Shown here in pieces: positions 966 to 7,719 of a stretch of 7,719 nucleotides of DNA. The DNA lies in IMG/VR virus record IMGVR_UViG_3300010313_000001; one strand, given 5' to 3'. The DNA comes from a virus. Made by a program: the position numbers and the translations under genes. The notes under the pieces are model-generated. The model ran no database searches. It saw only the letters and a list, made by a program, of their open reading frames with translations, and had not been told where the DNA came from. Every line of letters starts with the position of its first letter. The stretch's first letter is position 1.

Positions 966-1135
966 GAGGCCTCCTGCTGGGTCTGGCCAGGTTGAGAATC
1001 AGAATGTTCGTCGCTAAAGCGCTCGATGCATTCACGGCAAAGAAAGACCTCTTCACCGTCGAATGGCGAGGCGGTCAAAAGGAGAACGCCGAACTGGTTG
1101 CAGCAAGCGCAGACAGATTCAGCAGTCCAGGTCAT
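962..1135 (-). CDS. Small Cys4 zinc-ribbon-like protein, 57 aa, translationally coupled to rep
   Basis: ATG 1135 overlaps the rep stop (ATGA). The protein is MTWTAESVCACCNQFGVLLLTASPFDGEEVFLCRECIERFSDEHSDSQPGQTQQEAS, with Cys pairs C9/C12 and C33/C36 and an acidic tail. The 98-aa ORF-track version would overlap rep by 126 nt and is Pro/Arg/Cys-rich junk at its N-terminus. Confidence 0.55.
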   Translation of the reverse strand: MTWTAESVCACCNQFGVLLLTASPFDGEEVFLCRECIERFSDEHSDSQPGQTQQEAS

Positions 1136-2430
1136 GCGGCCACCAGTTGAAGATGGCCGGCAGGACGGCGGTAGAAGGACGGCATTGGCAGCACATCGAC
1201 CGGGATAACGTCGCGGCTGGCAACGTGGACGACAGGCGTAAAGCGGCTGGTGTCGCAAGGGTTGGCAATGTCGATGCCGATCTGACGCAGACGGGCGCGC
1301 ATGATCTTGACCTGAGACTTACCCAGGTCGAAGGATTTGCCACCCATCCACGCCAGGGCGTACTGGGCTGTAGTGTTTGCGGCCTTGGTGTTATCAACAA
1401 CGCCTTGGGTTACCAGATGCTCACTAATCGTCTCAAAATCCATCGCCGTCACCGTCAATCGTTCGTCTATCGCCAGGAACTCCCCGTGCACCTTCTTCAG
1501 GCGCTCCTCATCAAACAAACCCCACCAGGCGAGGCCTTCGCGCAGCAGGTATTCACGCTTCAATTCCTGCTCCATACGAACCACACCGTGAGCCTTGCAG
1601 TAGGCGATCAAGTCGCGCAGGTACTGGGCTTCAGTGGATTCATCGCCGAAGTTGCGGCGGGCCTTGGGTAGCAGGAACTTGGCGATCGCCGTCGCCTTGT
1701 CGTATGCCTTGCGGTACTGATCGCGGGCTTGCCAGTCCACGGTGCAGCCATCGGCATAGAGATTTGCTAGCTTGTAACCGGCGCGCTGGGTGCTCAGCGC
1801 CTTGATGTACTGGAGGGCGTTACCCTCCCCCGTTGTCCTGTTCGTGGTCAGGTCGATACGGGTGATACGCATGCCGTCACCCACCTGAACATGCTTATGG
1901 GTGGTCTCTACAGTGCGGGTCCAGCCGGTCTTATCCAGCTCGCCTGGCTCAGAGTCGAAGGCAAGATCGAGCTTTTCATCGAGCGTCAGTTCGCGGGTTG
2001 GAGCCGAGCGGTTGACGACCCTGGAAACAGGGGCTTGCATGAAATCCAGCCGGGTGCACTTCACGAGAGGCGGAATGCCGTACTCGGCAAGAATGCGGTT
2101 GTAGACGGCGACACACTGATCGATGGTCTGATAACCGAAGAGGTTGTCGAGCCGGTCAACGGCGCTCGGGTTGCCCTGGATGGTGAGCTTGCGGCCGTCG
2201 ACACGGATCTTGATCGAGGTCGAGTGAGAGCCTTCGTGCGTCCAGCCTGGCTGGGTGCGGCTGAGGCTTTCACCGGTGCGGGTGCAATAACGCTCGATTG
2301 TCACATCGGCCACCTTGGGCAAGTCGTGCGGGTACACCTGCTCTACCGATAGGTAGTCGATGAACATCGCAGAGCGAGGGGCGGTCGAAGGAGACATCGG
2401 CGTCCGATCCATAAGACAGATACGACGCAT
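1132..2430 (-). CDS. Rolling-circle replication initiation protein (gpII / Phage_CRI-like)
   Basis: This is the largest ORF in the GC-rich half. Motifs IKIRVDGRKLTIQGNPS..NLFG, ITRIDLTTN and YRKAYDK (candidate catalytic Tyr) match what I recall of Ff gpII-family proteins. It is divergent from the repressor. The first ATG (2430) lies inside the predicted -10 box, so the real start is probably 2412, 2397 or 2367. The last gives MFIDYLSV..., compare MIDML.. of Ff gpII. Confidence 0.85.
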   Translation of the reverse strand: MRRICLMDRTPMSPSTAPRSAMFIDYLSVEQVYPHDLPKVADVTIERYCTRTGESLSRTQPGWTHEGSHSTSIKIRVDGRKLTIQGNPSAVDRLDNLFGYQTIDQCVAVYNRILAEYGIPPLVKCTRLDFMQAPVSRVVNRSAPTRELTLDEKLDLAFDSEPGELDKTGWTRTVETTHKHVQVGDGMRITRIDLTTNRTTGEGNALQYIKALSTQRAGYKLANLYADGCTVDWQARDQYRKAYDKATAIAKFLLPKARRNFGDESTEAQYLRDLIAYCKAHGVVRMEQELKREYLLREGLAWWGLFDEERLKKVHGEFLAIDERLTVTAMDFETISEHLVTQGVVDNTKAANTTAQYALAWMGGKSFDLGKSQVKIMRARLRQIGIDIANPCDTSRFTPVVHVASRDVIPVDVLPMPSFYRRPAGHLQLVAA

Positions 2431-2456: not shown

Positions 2457-2468
2457 GACGTATTTGTC
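2431..2468. promoter_or_regulatory. Two operator-like direct repeats (AGTnnAGACGwATTTGTC) 20 bp apart
   Basis: 2431..2448 AGTAGAGACGAATTTGTC and 2451..2468 AGTCAAGACGTATTTGTC match at 15/18. Each contains a near-palindrome GAC-N6-GTC. The first fills the -35/-10 spacer of the rep promoter. The second overlaps and lies just upstream of the -35. Confidence 0.5.
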
Positions 2469-2508
2469 AGATAGTGGCGATCTGATGCGACGAGAAAGGA
2501 GTAAAACC

Positions 2509-2889
2509 GTGGTGAAATTGGTACATGAAAGTCCCAAGGAACAGACCTCAATGACCCTCGGTGAAAACCTGAAGCGCATACGCGAGCAAGCTGGACTGTC
2601 GCAAGGACAGCTAGCGGTGCTGGCGAACCTAAACCTGAAAATGGTTCAGAGGATCGAGGCCGGGGACGGGGACACCGGCATATCCAAAGTCAAGGCGCTG
2701 ATAATCGCGCTGGGGTGCACAGCGGACGAGCTGCTGTTCGACGAGGAAGAGCTAGGAGAGGACGGCGACCTAAAGATACTTTTCGAGCAGATGAGGAAGC
2801 TGGAAGGCCAAGAGCGTCAGACATGCAAGGAAGTGATACGAGCGCTGATCATGCAGCACCAAAACAGGGAGCTGCTGAAGCATGCCTAG
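2509..2889 (+). CDS. XRE/Cro-CI family HTH repressor (126 aa from GTG 2509; alternative ATG 2551)
   Basis: The HTH signature is LGENLKRIREQAGLSQGQLAVLANLNLKMVQRIEAG. AAGGAG (2496..2501) lies 7 nt upstream of the in-frame GTG 2509. It is divergent from rep, as rstR/rstA is in CTXphi and the c-repressor is in Pf phages. Confidence 0.8.
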   Translation: MVKLVHESPKEQTSMTLGENLKRIREQAGLSQGQLAVLANLNLKMVQRIEAGDGDTGISKVKALIIALGCTADELLFDEEELGEDGDLKILFEQMRKLEGQERQTCKEVIRALIMQHQNRELLKHA

Positions 2890-3133: not shown

Positions 3134-3313
3134 CCCTCCCGGCGCCGATCCAGGCGCAGACAAAGGCATGGCTTCGCCACTGGCCGCTACGCGCCCATCG
3201 CAAATGTGCGGGTGTTCCTCACGCGCTTGAACGAGCACGCCAACTAGAGCGAAAAGCGGGTTGGACAGTGAGGGGGTCGGCCTTGCGGTCGAGACCCTGA
3301 CGGAAATCGAGTC

Positions 3314-3403
3314 GATTTATCGTTACGCGCAAGGCGTTACGGATATTCCGACGAACGGTTGATTTATCGTTACGTAACGGTGGTCTATTTATCGTTACGT
3401 AAC
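3314..3403 (+). repeat. Iteron cluster: three copies of ATTTATCGTTACG, two of them extended to ATTTATCGTTACGTAAC
   Basis: The 13-mer occurs at 3315..3327, 3362..3374 and 3387..3399. The 17-mer occurs at 3362..3378 and 3387..3403. They contain the palindromes CGTTACGTAACG (3368..3379) and GTTACGTAAC (3394..3403). An extra CGTTACG lies at 3335..3341, and a 15-bp palindrome AAATCGAgTCGATTT at 3304..3318. Confidence 0.85.
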
Positions 3404-3409
3404 TATAAT
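3381..3409 (+). promoter_or_regulatory. Candidate promoter with perfect -10 TATAAT (3404..3409) for the coiled-coil gene
   Basis: TATAAT ends 6 nt before ATG 3416. The -35 position (3381..3386, TGGTCT) is poor and lies between the two palindromes. The second palindrome abuts the -10. Confidence 0.45.
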
Positions 3410-3415
3410 TACTCC

Positions 3416-3976
3416 ATGGCGCAACGCACTGGAGCAATGACCGTGATCGACCCTCGAGACCCAGGAACCCAACAGCTGCAGCTGGAGCAGAAACGCAGTC
3501 GCGGCCGTCCAGCAACTGGGCAGGCGCTCAGCAATGCCGAGCGTCAGCGCCGGTATCGTGAAGCGCAAAAAGCGCAACGTAACGAAAATATGCACAAGGA
3601 AGTTGCCGAGGATCTGCGCGCCGAGCTGGCGAAAGCCCTGGAAGAGATTGAATGCCTGAAAGCAAAGTTAAGAGCCGAATTCACGCTAGGGGAAAAGGCC
3701 AGGTCAGAAAACAAAAATCTAGCGCTAAAGGTCGCTCAGCTTGAAACGCAATTAAAGCAACGTAACGAAAAACAAGCTGACCAAGATGAGCAAGAAACGT
3801 GCTGGAGGATCCAAAAACGCAAAAGCAGCAAGGGGCGATGGACGACAGTGAAAGGTAGCTACAGGTCTGAGAGCGAAGCACATGAAGCGCTGCTCGAAAT
3901 GCCGCAAGAGCACCCGGTTGGAACAGCCTGGTACAGGGTTTTAGAGATCAAGAATGCTGCGGCAGGCGAGCTGTAA
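3416..3976 (+). CDS. Basic-region plus coiled-coil DNA-binding-like protein, 186 aa (AT-hook core RGRP; bZIP-like N-x7-R motif)
   Basis: The ORF track gives a 205-aa frame from TTG 3359, but that start lies within the iterons, so ATG 3416 (or 3437) is more plausible. The protein has KRSRGRPATGQALSNAERQRRYREAQK, then heptad-patterned helices (about aa 60-120), then a C-terminal Trp/Tyr-containing domain. I cannot name a family. Confidence 0.6.
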   Translation: MAQRTGAMTVIDPRDPGTQQLQLEQKRSRGRPATGQALSNAERQRRYREAQKAQRNENMHKEVAEDLRAELAKALEEIECLKAKLRAEFTLGEKARSENKNLALKVAQLETQLKQRNEKQADQDEQETCWRIQKRKSSKGRWTTVKGSYRSESEAHEALLEMPQEHPVGTAWYRVLEIKNAAAGEL

Positions 3977-4168
3977 GGCATCAATGCGGGCGTCAAGCTG
4001 GGCGCCCTCCTCATCAAGCTGCGATAACCGGCGGCGCACCTGGCGAAGCTCTCCGACAAGCCGGCCATAGTCCTCAAGCACATGCTCGACAGCGCCCTGA
4101 TCATCGCGACCAGGAGCATAGAGCCGCGCGTTACGTAACAGATATTCGGGGAGGTCTAGGACTGGCAT
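3941..4168 (-). CDS. Hypothetical protein, 75 aa, convergent with and overlapping the coiled-coil gene
   Basis: It is in the ORF track. Codon usage is plausible for a GC-rich gene and the C-terminus is helical and charged. There is no obvious Shine-Dalgarno sequence before ATG 4168. It overlaps 3416..3976 by 36 nt at the 3' ends. Confidence 0.4.
   Translation of the reverse strand: MPVLDLPEYLLRNARLYAPGRDDQGAVEHVLEDYGRLVGELRQVRRRLSQLDEEGAQLDARIDALQLACRSILDL
4130..4139. promoter_or_regulatory. Third copy of the palindrome GTTACGTAAC
   Basis: This is an exact 10-bp palindrome, identical to those at 3369..3378 and 3394..3403. It lies in codons 10-13 of the 75-aa ORF, 25 bp from dif-like site 1. 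Confidence 0.6.
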
Positions 4169-4192
4169 CGCATAATGGACGTTACATTAAAT
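4165..4192 (+). other. dif-like XerC/XerD site 1 (candidate attP arm)
   Basis: GCATCGCATAA-TGGACG-TTACATTAAAT compared with E. coli dif GGTGCGCATAA-TGTATA-TTATGTTAAAT matches 8/11 in the XerC arm and 9/11 in the XerD arm. Confidence 0.55.
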
Positions 4193-4226
4193 CGCGCCGG
4201 GAGCTTACCAGCATTGTCCCGACACG

Positions 4227-4259
4227 ATTAAACGTAACATCACGGATATTATGCGAAGC
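4227..4259 (-). other. dif-like XerC/XerD site 2, inverted relative to site 1 (candidate attP arm)
   Basis: The minus strand reads GCTTCGCATAA-TATCCGTGATG-TTACGTTTAAT. The XerC arm matches 9/11 and the XerD arm 9/11, with an 11-nt central region. Alternatively, a 6-nt central region gives a TGATGTTACGT arm matching 8/11. Confidence 0.5.
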
Positions 4260-4294
4260 CTAGAAATTGCCCGCGTAGATCTAGGAACGCATTT

Positions 4295-4402
4295 TTAAAG
4301 GACGCCTACTTCGTTGGCCAGCTCGGCAAGCAGGCTGAAGTTGTAACCACAGCCGAAAATGATCAGGGCCGCAACGAGCGCTACAAAGCAGAAATCACGC
4401 AT
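4295..4402 (-). CDS. 35-aa putative lipoprotein or small membrane peptide downstream of zot
   Basis: ATG 4402 has GAGG 8 nt upstream, overlapping the zot stop. The protein is MRDFCFVALVAALIIFGCGYNFSLLAELANEVGVL. IIFGC fits the lipobox pattern, which would leave an 18-aa mature peptide. The 108-aa ORF-track version begins inside zot and is unlikely. Confidence 0.5.
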   Translation of the reverse strand: MRDFCFVALVAALIIFGCGYNFSLLAELANEVGVL

Positions 4403-4412
4403 GGGAATGGCC

Positions 4413-5711
4413 TCAGAGATTGGTTCGTGGCTGGCGGCTGCTGTCAGGGATGACAGTAACCCGAACCTGGCCGGGCTGCGAATTCGCCTGGGCGCCTGCT
4501 GGGGCTTCGCCTCCAGCCGCGCCCAGAGCGTTTGTCGTGTGGCGGTCAACACGGCCATAAACGTCGATTGGCCAGGCGCGCGCGACATGAGCAACACCTT
4601 GCTTTTCGAGCAAAAGACCATAGCCGGTAACGGTCACTGTCCAGCCTAGAGCCTGTATCTCGTGCACGTCGAAGAGTTCCTTGACGTGGTAGGTGCCATC
4701 GAGCAGCTCGATACGACCCATGATCTCCCTGCCCTGTTTCTTGCTGGTGATGATCGCCGGAGCACGCACCTGATACTGCTGGGCAAGGCGGTCGAAGTAA
4801 TCGATGGCGACGACCTCGGGTTCGGCCTGCTGTTCAGGCTCCTGCGAGGGCTGTGAGACGTGAAAGCCTGGCGGCAACGGGTTAGCCAGGTTGGAAGCGA
4901 CAACGGGCTCAGGAAGAGGCTCAGGGGCCGGCACAGGGGCGCGCTCGACCTTGACGGTCGTTGGCGCAGACTTTGGCTCAGGATGAAAGAAATTCCAGAG
5001 GTGCACCACGGCGAAGATAGCGGCGCCGAAAGCCAGCGGCACACCAAACATCAGGCCGGAGGAATTCTTGAGCATATTGGTGCGCTTGGTCGTGTAGACC
5101 TTGGCCCGCATGCCCTCACGCCGGTGAGACATATACGTGCCGAAGTAAGTTTTGTCGTACTGGCGAGTACCGCTGCCAGTCTTTTCAAACTTGCCGAAGC
5201 GCTGTTTCTGGTAAATCTCCCATTTGTAATAGTCAGGGCGGCCAATGGCCTCTTGTTTAAGGAAATAGATAACGGTGCGTATACGGTTACGGATGATCTT
5301 GTGAACGTCACTGCGATCCTGCCCCATGATGATGATATCTAGGCCACGATGACGGTGTTCAGTCCAAAACTTTTGTTGATTGAGTGGCAACTTGTAATTG
5401 CCGCTCGGGAAGTAGTCTTGAATTTCGTCCCATACGATAAGCGCGTTATCAGGCGTCTTATCGCACATTTCATTGATGCAGCGCTGTACTTCGCCGTCGG
5501 CACTGTCCTGTTCGGCTGGGTCAACATTAATTAGCAGCAACTGAATCATTGCGAGAGGCTCGCCGGTTAGCTCAGCAACCTTTTCGTAGTTCATTCCACG
5601 GATGTTTGTAACAACCGAGCGACGCTCTTTCAATGCAGGAATGATATGGAAGACGACAGCCTCATATGACTTGCCAGCACCTGGCAAACCTTCATGGTAT
5701 TCAATAGCCAT
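4413..5711 (-). CDS. zot: Zot / pI-type phage assembly ATPase, 432 aa
   Basis: The N-terminal Walker A is GLPGAGKS (aa 8-15) and the Walker B-like motif is LIVWDEIQ. A single TM segment is GLMFGVPLAFGAAIFAVVHLWNFF (aa about 219-242), followed by a Pro-rich linker and a periplasmic C-terminal domain. It sits after the pVI-like gene. Confidence 0.9.
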   Translation of the reverse strand: MAIEYHEGLPGAGKSYEAVVFHIIPALKERRSVVTNIRGMNYEKVAELTGEPLAMIQLLLINVDPAEQDSADGEVQRCINEMCDKTPDNALIVWDEIQDYFPSGNYKLPLNQQKFWTEHRHRGLDIIIMGQDRSDVHKIIRNRIRTVIYFLKQEAIGRPDYYKWEIYQKQRFGKFEKTGSGTRQYDKTYFGTYMSHRREGMRAKVYTTKRTNMLKNSSGLMFGVPLAFGAAIFAVVHLWNFFHPEPKSAPTTVKVERAPVPAPEPLPEPVVASNLANPLPPGFHVSQPSQEPEQQAEPEVVAIDYFDRLAQQYQVRAPAIITSKKQGREIMGRIELLDGTYHVKELFDVHEIQALGWTVTVTGYGLLLEKQGVAHVARAWPIDVYGRVDRHTTNALGAAGGEAPAGAQANSQPGQVRVTVIPDSSRQPRTNL

Positions 5712-6025: not shown

Positions 6026-7387
6026 TCACAAGAATGCGATACGAAAAGACATAATCGCGGCAACGCCGAGAATTATGGCTGCTATGAAATTCCAAGGAAT
6101 TTGATTGCCGCACCACTGGTCAAGTTGAATAGTGAAAACCCAAGCATTGATTGTTTCGCCTGGGCACGAGCCGCTTGGGTTGAAAGTTAGGAAACTGGTA
6201 ATGCCGGTGACAACTGGCAACGCCGCAACCCTGTAGCGGAAATCGCCGAGAACGGATGCATATGTGTCATCTTTTGACTCATACCAACCCTCGCCAGAAC
6301 CGCCCTCCTCAGCCGCACAGTCGCCCGTTATGCAATCGCCGAAGCCATCGCCGTCGCCGTCTGGATTGGTGTTCTTGTCAGGGCATGCAGGGCCAGTGCA
6401 AGAGCCTTTGATACTGTTAGTTTTGCCATTGGCGTCTTTTTCAATGACGGTTTTCGTAGTGGTGGTGGTGCTAGTGCATTGGTTAGCGCCAGTGCACTTA
6501 GTATGTGTGGCGGTATCTGTTTTCGTGGTAGTAGAACTGCCGTCTGGCTTGGTTTCGGTCTTGACCTCGGTCTTTATGTTGACGCCGTTCTTAGTAGGCT
6601 TGGAATCGACGCAGGTCTTAACGCCGTTTACCTCGCCGCAATATTGGCCTTCTTTTTGAGTAGTAAACTCAGAGTCACAGCGCAAAACACCGTCAGGACC
6701 CTCGACGTACTGACATGGTGTTTCCTCGGAAGTAGTCTCAGGCTGCGGTCGTTCTTGTTGATCCGTGAAATCGACGTTAGGGGCAGTTGTGCACTTAGAC
6801 CCAGTATAATAAGCAGTACCAGAACAGCGATAAGCACCAGAGGTTTTAATTGTGCACTTTTGATCAGTGGTAGAAGCAGCGCAACCCCCGTAGCATGCTT
6901 CGGTGTTAGGAATGCCATAACCATTAACAACGGTCACGTAGTTATCGGCAGAAGAATTAGACTTTGTGAACGGAAACGATGAACCGCCCTTGTCAGCACA
7001 AAGATCAGGCTCCGGATCAATGGGGGGTATACAAGTAGGGCGTGAAGGGTCTGAATTATTGAAAGTGTGATCAGGTGGGCACGAGTCGCCAGCACGGTAA
7101 ACATCATACCAACAGTTGTTATTAGTTGAACCACCATTGACAGAATCCCTAAGCTGACAAAATTGCCAGCGTATATCGCTCTGCCAGCGAGTAGACCCAA
7201 GCCGGTAGTTTGTATACGTAGTACTGTTAGACTGAGAATATGCCATAAAGGCATTGGCAGCATCATGAGGGCTAGAAAATTTCTGAGAGCCCAATGCAGA
7301 CATGTACCAGTAATAATCAACGGCATAAACAGGAGAAGCAAACAGAACTAAGCAAATGTAAAGCCAACGATAATTGAACACGCGCAT
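6026..7387 (-). CDS. pIII-like adsorption / minor coat protein (453 aa from ATG 7387; the ORF extends to ATG 7420)
   Basis: MRVFNYRWLYICLVLFASPVYA is a classic signal peptide. The N-terminal domains are Cys-rich. Low-complexity linkers are Thr-rich and Gly/Asp-rich (TSTTTTTKT, NPDGDGDGFGDC, EEGGSGEG). The C-terminal anchor is IPWNFIAAIILGVAAIMSFRIAFL. It sits directly after the coat gene and terminator. Confidence 0.8.
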   Translation of the reverse strand: MRVFNYRWLYICLVLFASPVYAVDYYWYMSALGSQKFSSPHDAANAFMAYSQSNSTTYTNYRLGSTRWQSDIRWQFCQLRDSVNGGSTNNNCWYDVYRAGDSCPPDHTFNNSDPSRPTCIPPIDPEPDLCADKGGSSFPFTKSNSSADNYVTVVNGYGIPNTEACYGGCAASTTDQKCTIKTSGAYRCSGTAYYTGSKCTTAPNVDFTDQQERPQPETTSEETPCQYVEGPDGVLRCDSEFTTQKEGQYCGEVNGVKTCVDSKPTKNGVNIKTEVKTETKPDGSSTTTKTDTATHTKCTGANQCTSTTTTTKTVIEKDANGKTNSIKGSCTGPACPDKNTNPDGDGDGFGDCITGDCAAEEGGSGEGWYESKDDTYASVLGDFRYRVAALPVVTGITSFLTFNPSGSCPGETINAWVFTIQLDQWCGNQIPWNFIAAIILGVAAIMSFRIAFL

Positions 7388-7488: not shown

Positions 7489-7623
7489 TTAACGGAACCA
7501 GCCAATCACTTTGTTGTAACCCCACTTGGCAACGCCAGGCAGAATCTTGATAGCGGCGATAGCGGTGATAGCAGCGACGATAGTGGTCGCATCAACGGCG
7601 CCGGTCAGAACGGAAGCATCCAT
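7489..7623 (-). CDS. Major coat protein, 44 aa, no signal peptide (Pf3-like architecture)
   Basis: It is not in the ORF track because it is too short. Hand translation gives MDASVLTGAVDATTIVAAITAIAAIKILPGVAKWGYNKVIGWFR followed by a stop. GGAGA lies 6 nt upstream. It has an acidic N-terminus, a hydrophobic core and a basic, aromatic C-terminus. The first 9 codons are repeated at 1..27. Confidence 0.85.
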   Translation of the reverse strand: MDASVLTGAVDATTIVAAITAIAAIKILPGVAKWGYNKVIGWFR

Positions 7624-7719
7624 CGTGAATCTCCTATTTCAGTCTTCATCAAGGGTTTGTGTAGCGGCACGGCTGTTGATGAAGTTAACAACCGCACCGA
7701 GTCCCCAGCTGGTAAGCCA
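7597..7719. repeat. Terminal redundancy, copy B (identical to 1..123)
   Basis: Same comparison as copy A. The offset of 7,596 nt gives the unit length. Confidence 0.95.

Follow-up and report, generated by a model that had tools for sequence, protein, structure and literature searches.

We analyzed IMG/VR virus record IMGVR_UViG_3300010313_000001, a stretch of 7,719 nucleotides (nt) referred to here as the window, and found that about 150 nt downstream of its zot gene it carries two inverted dif-like sites that are predicted to fold on one another as single-stranded DNA (ssDNA). At the level of its sequence, the element fits the definition of the CTX type among integrative mobile elements that exploit Xer (IMEXs). 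We consider it very likely that this phage integrates in the CTX manner, with host XerC and XerD acting on the folded (+) strand at dif. An earlier note on this DNA, made from the letters alone, had put forward the same Xer-exploiting reading, and the predicted fold, the match to host dif, the prophages of relatives, and the conservation of the element all support it with high confidence.

The first 123 bases of the window recur at its end (1-123 = 7597-7719), and hence the window represents a circular genome of 7,596 bp. Its gene set, which includes coat-type proteins, is of the inovirus type, with the morphogenesis and replication genes on the window minus strand (Pfam and PHROGs scans). Because the strand packaged by inoviruses has the same sense as their genes, the window minus strand is the phage (+) strand. 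No recombinase of any kind (integrase, resolvase, or transposase) was found by Pfam or PHROGs among the open reading frames (ORFs) judged to be genes, as the earlier note had stated of integrases and recombinases, and tblastn of the window with the integrase of relatives gave no match. The two sites lie between zot, the last core gene (4413..5711, minus strand; Pfam Zot, E 4.7e-33), and a divergent XRE-type helix-turn-helix repressor (2464..2889, plus strand; Pfam HTH_3, E 1.5e-09), a position that had rightly been called CTX-like. Like rstR in CTXphi, this repressor marks the regulatory side.

Site 1 (4165-4192, plus strand) reads GCATCGCATAA TGGACG TTACATTAAAT with the canonical 6-bp spacing, and its complement is the bottom strand of the hairpin on the phage (+) strand. 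Site 2 has the opposite orientation (4259->4227, minus strand; GCTTCGCATAA TATCCGTGATG TTACGTTTAAT). It consists of an XerC-type arm (4249..4259, minus strand, GCTTCGCATAA) that forms the top strand of the hairpin on the phage (+) strand, an over-long central region of 11 nt (4238..4248, minus strand, TATCCGTGATG), and an XerD-type arm (4227..4237, minus strand, TTACGTTTAAT) that pairs with 4182-4192. Both sites are found in the sequence where they had been placed. The dif site of Pseudomonas aeruginosa is GATTCGCATAA TGTATA TTATGTTAAAT (Carnoy & Roten, PMC2731167). Comparison with this P. aeruginosa site gave 9/11 matches for the XerC arm of site 1, 10/11 for that of site 2, and 9/11 for each XerD arm. 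In the comparison with candidate hosts that had been proposed as a check, the arms match the dif of the likely host group, Pseudomonas. The host of the window phage probably belongs to the Pseudomonadaceae. For site 1, the XerC arm has 8/11 matches to the dif of E. coli. The pattern TTCGCATAA-N6-TTATGTTAAAT with up to 3 mismatches matched just these two places (0 in 200 shuffles), and the pattern TCGCATAA-N{4,14}-TTAYRTTWAAT matched exactly the same two sites (0 expected from 200 shuffles). The central region of site 1, TGGACG, differs from TGTATA at 3/6 positions. With lengths of 11 nt (site 2) and 6 nt (site 1), both central regions are of the kind that makes poor duplex substrates in CTX-type elements, and the duplex sites are predicted to be inert.

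Folded as ssDNA, the window minus strand reached -29.5 kcal/mol (z -5.7; none of 200 shuffles equaled it), versus -22.2 kcal/mol (z -3.0) for the plus strand. The folding check proposed for both strands thus came out in favor of a structured site that folds better on the gene-bearing strand, i.e., the packaged (+) strand. Several positions that are G·T on the phage (+) strand are A·C on its complement, which accounts for the gap in stability between the strands. The whole element spans ~97 nt, with 34 nt between the sites, and reads on the phage (+) strand 5'-GCTTCGCATAA / TATCCGTGATG / TTACGTTTAAT / CGTGTCGGGA - 14-nt loop - TCCCGGCGCG / ATTTAATGTAA / CGTCCA / TTATGCGATGC-3'. The pairing counted previously is exact (4164-4176 with 4248-4260, 13 positions and 1 mismatch; 4181-4194 with 4225-4238, 14 positions and 2 mismatches), and so is the count of a bubble of 4 nt against 9 nt in that pairing. 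Besides the choice of strand, for which the minus strand is the relevant one, two structural claims had to be revised. First, the supposed 30-nt apical loop resolves, on the minus strand, into a stem extension of 10 bp and a loop of 14 nt. The 5' half of the extension (4217..4226, minus strand, CGTGTCGGGA) pairs, G·T included, with the 3' half (4193..4202, minus strand, TCCCGGCGCG), and the loop (4203..4216, minus strand) appears in both the minimum-free-energy and the centroid folds. The extension had been overlooked because 4193-4202 and 4217-4226 face each other with A·C mismatches on the plus strand. Second, in place of a forked central bubble, the predicted fold has a top-strand bulge opposite a fully paired bottom strand. 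On the bottom strand, each of the six central nucleotides has a partner, and the top strand has five surplus nucleotides that bulge just 3' of the XerC arm, such that T1 is paired, ATCC and one T are bulged, and GATG is paired. The sequence and length of the loop vary among relatives.

To gather relatives, we used searches anchored on Zot and on ORF75, a small ORF next to the hairpin, which yielded about 60 loci (labeled L001 onward). A top-strand CGCATAA followed by TTATGCG within 30-220 nt is present in most complete relatives. The inverted pair stands just downstream of zot, or of a small ORF after zot, in 19 non-identical relatives, and phages blackswan219-1 and silverpheasant213 have it without detectable nucleotide similarity to the window around the site. 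In the relatives, the central region of the long-spacer site measures 9-13 nt. We aligned the 19 non-identical hairpins (97 columns, 38 pairs). CGCATAAT and ATTATGCG are almost invariant, the sole variation being a change of the outermost T·A pair to T·G in 3/19, and the XerC-arm core CGCATAA(T), whose conservation had been proposed as a check, is invariant in these 19 distinct relatives. On the named structure, 89.8% of pair cells are paired, versus 32-41% when the partners are slid by 1-3 columns. Compensatory changes (on both sides) occur in 17/38 pairs, 15 of these in the helix of XerD arm and extension; within the extension (alignment columns 34-43 with 60-69), 7/10 pairs have them. RNAalifold independently recovers the same helix. 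Two distinct sequence types keep the pairing, type A (TTACGTTTAAT.../...ATTTAATGTAA) and type B (TTATGTTGAGC.../...GCGTAACATA). The non-Watson-Crick cells comprise 65 G·T and 1 A·C, and the (+) hairpin is more stable than its complement in 19/19 relatives, by 3.8-9.4 kcal/mol (mean 6.7). Sites acting only as duplex DNA would not give such a G·T bias, which therefore points to a single-stranded, sense-strand function. As judged from these alignments, the pattern indicates that it is on the (+) strand that selection acts on pairing.

In at least ten related prophages, the end beside zot is a canonical dif. The evidence on prophages comes mostly from protein-anchored contig look-ups and from scans of IMG/VR and metagenomes. 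L007, a contig of P. aeruginosa GCA_053631655.1, encodes a Zot 70% identical to that of the window. Its left junction joins ...cctgtaGATTCGCATAATGT to GCAGACGTTACGTTAGGC... (GATTCGCATAATGT to GCAGACGTTACG...), and an inverted site, GGCATCGCATAA CGGACG TTACG, follows ~75 nt on, on the other strand. Its right junction, 8 bases past the zot stop codon, joins GCTTCGCATAATGT to ATATTATGTTAAAT. The host halves of L007 (host XerC arm, TGTATA, and TTATGTTAAAT) rebuild exactly the PAO1 dif GATTCGCATAATGTATATTATGTTAAAT (PMC2731167). L009 has ATTTCGCATAA and a phage central region on the left and ACTTCGCATAA TCTATA TTATGTTAAAT on the right. L015 (from a metagenome-assembled genome of the Pseudomonadaceae), L039, and L043 combine a host XerC arm and a phage central region on the left with a canonical dif on the right, while L035 has ATTT... 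on the left and GCTT... plus dif on the right. The zot-side canonical dif alone was seen in L012, L013, L024, L030, and L055, and in L022 a host-type arm is present just on the left.

In L007, L009, and L035, the XerC arm of the host is not the same as that of the phage, and there the switch falls inside TTCGCATAAT; counting L043, the switch between phage and host lies within TTCGCATAAT or directly after it. In the Xer literature, XerC cleaves at this position (PMC4246890). Read in this way, the junctions place the crossover at the border of XerC arm and central region of the long-spacer site, equivalent to window 4249/4248 and at the edge of 4238-4248, one of the two intervals in which the earlier note had expected it. 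All prophages examined retain an intact, inverted site 1 homologue immediately inside their left junction. The sequences of the relatives thus identify dif as the target, together with the crossover position, the orientation, and selection for folding. The hairpin of the L015 prophage is close in sequence to that of the window, and L015 also encodes an ORF75 homologue, so the window's own module is represented among integrated copies. Contigs L016, L022, L036, and L038 end exactly at the crossover point. More broadly, the ends of L016, L022, L036, L038/L061, and L008 and the start of L049 fall at GCTTCGCATAAT(G); a fork of the assembly graph at the crossover, with phage on one branch and chromosome on the other, would give such ends. 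L039 and L043 show the order zot end, intact hairpin, whole phage, zot, dif, and host, which would be given by a tandem prophage array or by an assembler merge of circular and integrated forms. In CTXphi, virion production needs tandem copies. L008 was considered as a free circular form of the L007 phage and set aside; it is only the same sequence cut at two TTCGCATAATGT repeats, with no proof of a circle. A tRNA gene as target was likewise dropped, as the window contains no tRNA gene and the relatives are integrated at dif.

We propose that (+) ssDNA, supplied by rolling-circle replication or by infection, would let the two inverted sites fold back on one another. The fold would comprise an XerC-arm duplex of 11-12 bp, a bulged central region, an XerD-arm duplex continued by 10 bp, and the 14-nt loop. 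XerC and XerD would bind this folded duplex, and XerC would cut the top strand between GCTTCGCATAA and TATCC... (4249/4248) and exchange it with the top strand of chromosomal dif. Replication would then turn the three-way, or pseudo-Holliday, intermediate into a prophage. Its left end would consist of the host XerC arm, the phage central region, and the phage XerD arm, followed by the intact inverted site 1; its right end, after zot, would consist of the phage XerC arm, the host central region, and the host XerD arm, i.e., a regenerated dif. For the window phage, the expected junctions are TATCCGTGATGTTACG joined to a non-phage XerC arm and GCTTCGCATAA joined to N6-TTATGTTAAAT, and the dif of its host is predicted to have a TAT-type central region. 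From the comparative signatures and by analogy with CTXphi, we infer the binding and catalysis by XerC and XerD, the ssDNA substrate, the resolution by replication, and the integration of the window phage itself.

Several points weigh against this reading. First, the relatives are akin by descent, and covariation counts therefore overstate the number of independent events. Second, any other function of the (+) strand, such as that of an RNA structure, a minus-strand origin, or a packaging signal, would also produce strand-specific pairing. The hairpin might mainly be a (+)-strand packaging signal or a minus-strand origin, with its dif likeness secondary or with both roles combined; selection for (+)-strand pairing fits this equally well, and the imperfect (+)-strand hairpins of Ff-type phages, found after the last morphogenesis gene, occupy a comparable place. 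However, such a role leaves the CGCATAA/TTATGCG cores, the XerD-arm matches, the dif junctions, and the mutual exclusion with integrases unexplained. Among 59 non-redundant loci, the window counted, 35 have the hairpin and/or a dif junction and none of these has an integrase, whereas the 4 loci with a tyrosine integrase 3' of zot (L021 and L025-L027; Pfam Int_N and Phage_integrase) have no dif-like site. The other 20, mostly truncated contigs, have neither hairpin, dif junction, nor integrase. They include three complete circles (L017, L020, and L044), and since these lack a dif-like hairpin, packaging and replication in the clade do not depend on it. We regard a packaging signal or origin as the main role as quite unlikely; a second role of this kind beside integration may exist but is not required. 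That the hairpin serves to terminate transcription, or as an RNA structure, where the zot operon ends is extremely improbable. The hairpin does follow the last gene of the operon and has G·U-type pairs on the sense strand, but no T-run follows the stem, no terminator-like site is present in 3800-4600, no Rfam family matches in the window, and the dif-like arms and junctions would have no explanation.

Third, the prophage junctions alone do not separate an ssDNA hairpin from a double-stranded DNA (dsDNA) site 2, as they look alike whichever form recombined. The dsDNA replicative form could then recombine via site 2 alone, with the inverted site 1 serving otherwise, e.g., in the regulation of ORF75, whose start codon falls within the XerC arm of site 1. 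We find this unlikely: the 9-13-bp central region present in all relatives is of a kind reported for CTXphi as unsuited to Xer recombination (PMC4246890), the compensatory changes reach 10 bp past the Xer arms, and the 65:1 ratio of G·T to A·C is unexplained if duplex DNA alone matters. Fourth, site 1 itself has the dif-like 11-6-11 geometry and could in principle act as a dsDNA site. With 9/11 matches in its arms, it might be the true attP on the dsDNA replicative form, as in VGJphi-type elements. Such use would split site 1 and put the two sites at opposite ends of the prophage; the relatives contradict this, with site 1 homologues left intact and the crossover in the long-spacer site, and we judge it very unlikely.

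Fifth, in CTXphi the stress is on homology beside the XerC site, but the bases shared there by phage and host dif are TGT in L007, TG in L015, and T only in L009, L035, L039, and L043, so that the first central-region base (T) is the sole base always shared. Sixth, the window central region starts with TAT, unlike the TGTATA, TCTATA, and TCGATA of the relatives' hosts. Lastly, no integrated copy of the exact window phage was found in the collections searched, where it occurs only as circular metagenomic contigs of ~7.7 kb. Zot and ORF75, looked up as exact proteins, led to nothing but such contigs, and a scan of species-representative genomes gave one locus, L015. The expectation that prophages would be found at dif thus holds for the relatives, which are at dif and not in tRNA genes.

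Integration of the CTX type, which we continue to favor, invites comparison with CTXphi, whose geometry we took from published numbers. In CTXphi, the central region of attP1 is 12 bp and that of the other site is 5-7 bp without dif homology (PMC4246890), and the sites are inverted between the last core gene and the repressor (PMC4246890, PMC3442271). Like CTXphi, the window phage is an integrase-less inovirus with two inverted dif-like sites between the last core gene and a divergent repressor. One central region is over-long (11 nt here, 12 in CTXphi) and one short (6 here, 5-7 in CTXphi), and folding of the (+) strand joins the sites in a duplex that has XerC and XerD arms, here by computation only. 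The attP(+) of CTXphi is reportedly the work of Val et al. 2005 and Das et al. 2010, reviewed in PMC4246890 and PMC3442271. The relatives' prophages resemble those of CTXphi in lying at dif with both phage sites at the regulatory end and a regenerated dif at the zot end, and the tandem-looking contigs L039 and L043 add to the likeness. In contrast, the hosts are Vibrio for CTXphi and Pseudomonadaceae here, and the phages have no nucleotide similarity. The window element is compact, with 34 nt between the sites versus 90 and ~97 nt in total versus ~150, and it has a 10-bp G+C-rich stem extension past the XerD arm. Its predicted fold has a top-strand bulge opposite a paired bottom strand rather than a forked bubble, the relatives' homology to host dif beside the XerC site can be as little as one base, and the system is known from sequence comparison only.

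CUS-1phi of E. coli O18:K1:H7 and Ypfphi of Yersinia pestis, cited as CTX-related (PMC3442271), are likewise integrase-less filamentous prophages at dif; by the literature, on which this comparison is based, they belong to another lineage of phages and have hosts of another order. VGJphi-type IMEXs (VGJphi; XacF1 and Cf1c of Xanthomonas) use a single dif-like site as dsDNA and leave the prophage between two recombination-competent sites. The window phage resembles them as an inovirus that would integrate at dif by XerC catalysis without an integrase of its own, but it has two inverted sites, and the crossover in relatives is in the non-canonical one. In TLC-type IMEXs, the XerD arm is degenerate and the element itself encodes an Xer activation factor (XafT, DUF3653), whereas both XerD arms of the window match at 9/11 and DUF3653 has no match among the 11 ORFs scanned against Pfam. 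The window shows the following features of the CTX type: no recombinase of its own, two inverted sites each with both arms, central regions of the fitting kind, and (+)-strand pairing as computed. Integration at dif with CTX anatomy was found in relatives (L007, L009, L015, L035, L039, and L043), and for the window phage no integrated copy turned up in the collections searched.

The integrase-less P. aeruginosa prophages of groups 4-7 described by Evseev et al. 2023 have terminal direct repeats of 11-12 nt (PMC10675462). That study called the site 'intergenic' and suggested 'host-encoded integrases', and it recognized neither dif nor a hairpin (PMC10675462). The records of Pf 36-2 (OR621019) and Pf 17897 (OR621025) start with a homologous hairpin and have TTCGCATAATGT at both ends, annotated as repeat_region (1-12 and 7090-7101 in OR621019, our L065; 1-12 and 7171-7182 in OR621025, our L066). 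TTCGCATAATGT is made up of the XerC-arm core and the three bases with which the central region of P. aeruginosa dif begins, and the boundaries of these two prophages are therefore dif crossover points. Pf 17897 has the hairpin, regulatory, and replication modules in common with L007 (about 95% identity over 41% of L007). Both prophages belong to the same broad phage group as the window phage, which is another species: in 50,697 phage records, a megablast search with the whole window matched over 68 bp only and revealed no close described relative among deposited phages.

In the literature searched, with subscription papers outside its coverage, we found no paper that names dif or a CTX-type folded attP for Pseudomonas inoviruses. 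Folded-single-strand integration at dif has so far been studied in depth essentially only in CTXphi, with two enterobacterial relatives cited. Here, the same design recurs in an unrelated and widespread inovirus clade, in a compact, strongly conserved form with a signature of strand-specific selection, and the hosts of this clade include P. aeruginosa. This answers the question left open in 2023 on the integrase-less P. aeruginosa prophages, namely that they integrate at dif. The biology it predicts is irreversible integration, virions made from tandem copies, a host that keeps a functional dif, and superinfection that adds copies at the same site. It also gives annotators a simple motif by which to set the boundaries of such prophages. 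We regard the result as useful, and not surprising in principle.

Comparison of the relatives also suggested that the integration function can be exchanged. L001, the nearest relative, has 87-94% nucleotide identity to the window elsewhere and is wholly different across window 3160-4434. Its counterpart (7489-7717 and 1-1315) has a type B hairpin (GGTTCGCATAA...TTATGTTGAGC / GCGTAACAT...TTATGCGATGC) and a different downstream coiled-coil gene. This swap implies that the integration function acts as an exchangeable cassette. The integrases of L021 (6361-7437), L025 (8500-9558), L026, and L027 lie in the same general place as the hairpin, after an unassigned 428-aa ORF. A further unit, absent from the window, was noted in several relatives. 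It spans ~110-185 bp and carries a small ORF between zot and the hairpin (or the regenerated dif), flanked by direct repeats of the XerC arm (e.g., GCGCTTCGCATAATGG). It occurs in L015 (11297-11482), L040 (1678-1863), L032 (8114-8299), and L043 (7713-7898), and also in L033, L034, L030 (4823-5031), and L012 (3791-3923). The upstream repeat resembles dif in its own right (TGGAGA TTATGAAATGA), and the ribosome-binding site of the ORF and its start codon overlap with it. By its layout, the unit resembles a cassette that the XerC border has captured or at which it was duplicated.

A wider interpretation, which we offer tentatively and hold to be doubtful as a whole, is that the hairpin marks a large unrecognized Pseudomonadaceae clade of single-strand-integrating Xer exploiters, clinical P. 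aeruginosa prophages among them. Integration would then be a swappable cassette after zot (type A with ORF75, type B, or a tyrosine integrase), and the XerC arm might capture small-ORF cassettes. If true, Xer recombination would shape phage gene content besides lysogeny, and P. aeruginosa would offer a second tractable system in which to study Xer recombination between ssDNA and dsDNA, on a minimal substrate of 97 nt.

ORF75 (3941..4168, minus strand; phrog_13909, PHROGs E 7.5e-29) is small and coiled-coil-like, and it accompanies the type A hairpin. Its homologues adjoin the same inverted pair in blackswan219-1 and silverpheasant213, and hairpin and ORF75 also occur together in prophages L009 and L015, the L015 homologue with 61% identity. 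ORF75 has no Pfam match. Searches of PDB sequences with ORF75 and with a 116-aa protein of L007 returned coiled-coil noise only, and no link of either protein to XafT turned up. Among the remaining genes, all on the minus strand, are a rolling-circle replication initiator of the gene II / RstA type (1132..2430; Pfam G2P_X_C and Phage_CRI; phrog_702, E 2.3e-86) and, by the Pfam and PHROGs scans, an ssDNA-binding protein (707-423), an adsorption-type protein of 464 aa (7420-6026), and a gene-VI-like protein (6017-5715). The last precedes zot, the gene I-type assembly ATPase and final morphogenesis gene. A small capsid gene, not placed in the window, is known from the gene calls of the identical contig L006, in which a 35-aa hydrophobic ORF between zot and the hairpin (4295-4402, minus strand; MRDFCFVALVAALIIFGCGYNFSLLAELANEVGVL) is also a called gene. 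Finally, the palindromic motif CGTTACGTAACG has four copies with up to 2 mismatches (3368-3379, 3393-3404, 3573-3584, and 4129-4140) versus 0.14 expected. Three copies are in the regulatory region within 22-nt direct repeats (3310-3403), and the fourth falls inside the 5' end of ORF75, with 25 nt between it and the hairpin base. The copies are probably operator sites. Similar palindromes, GTTACNGTAAC, follow the hairpin in L007.

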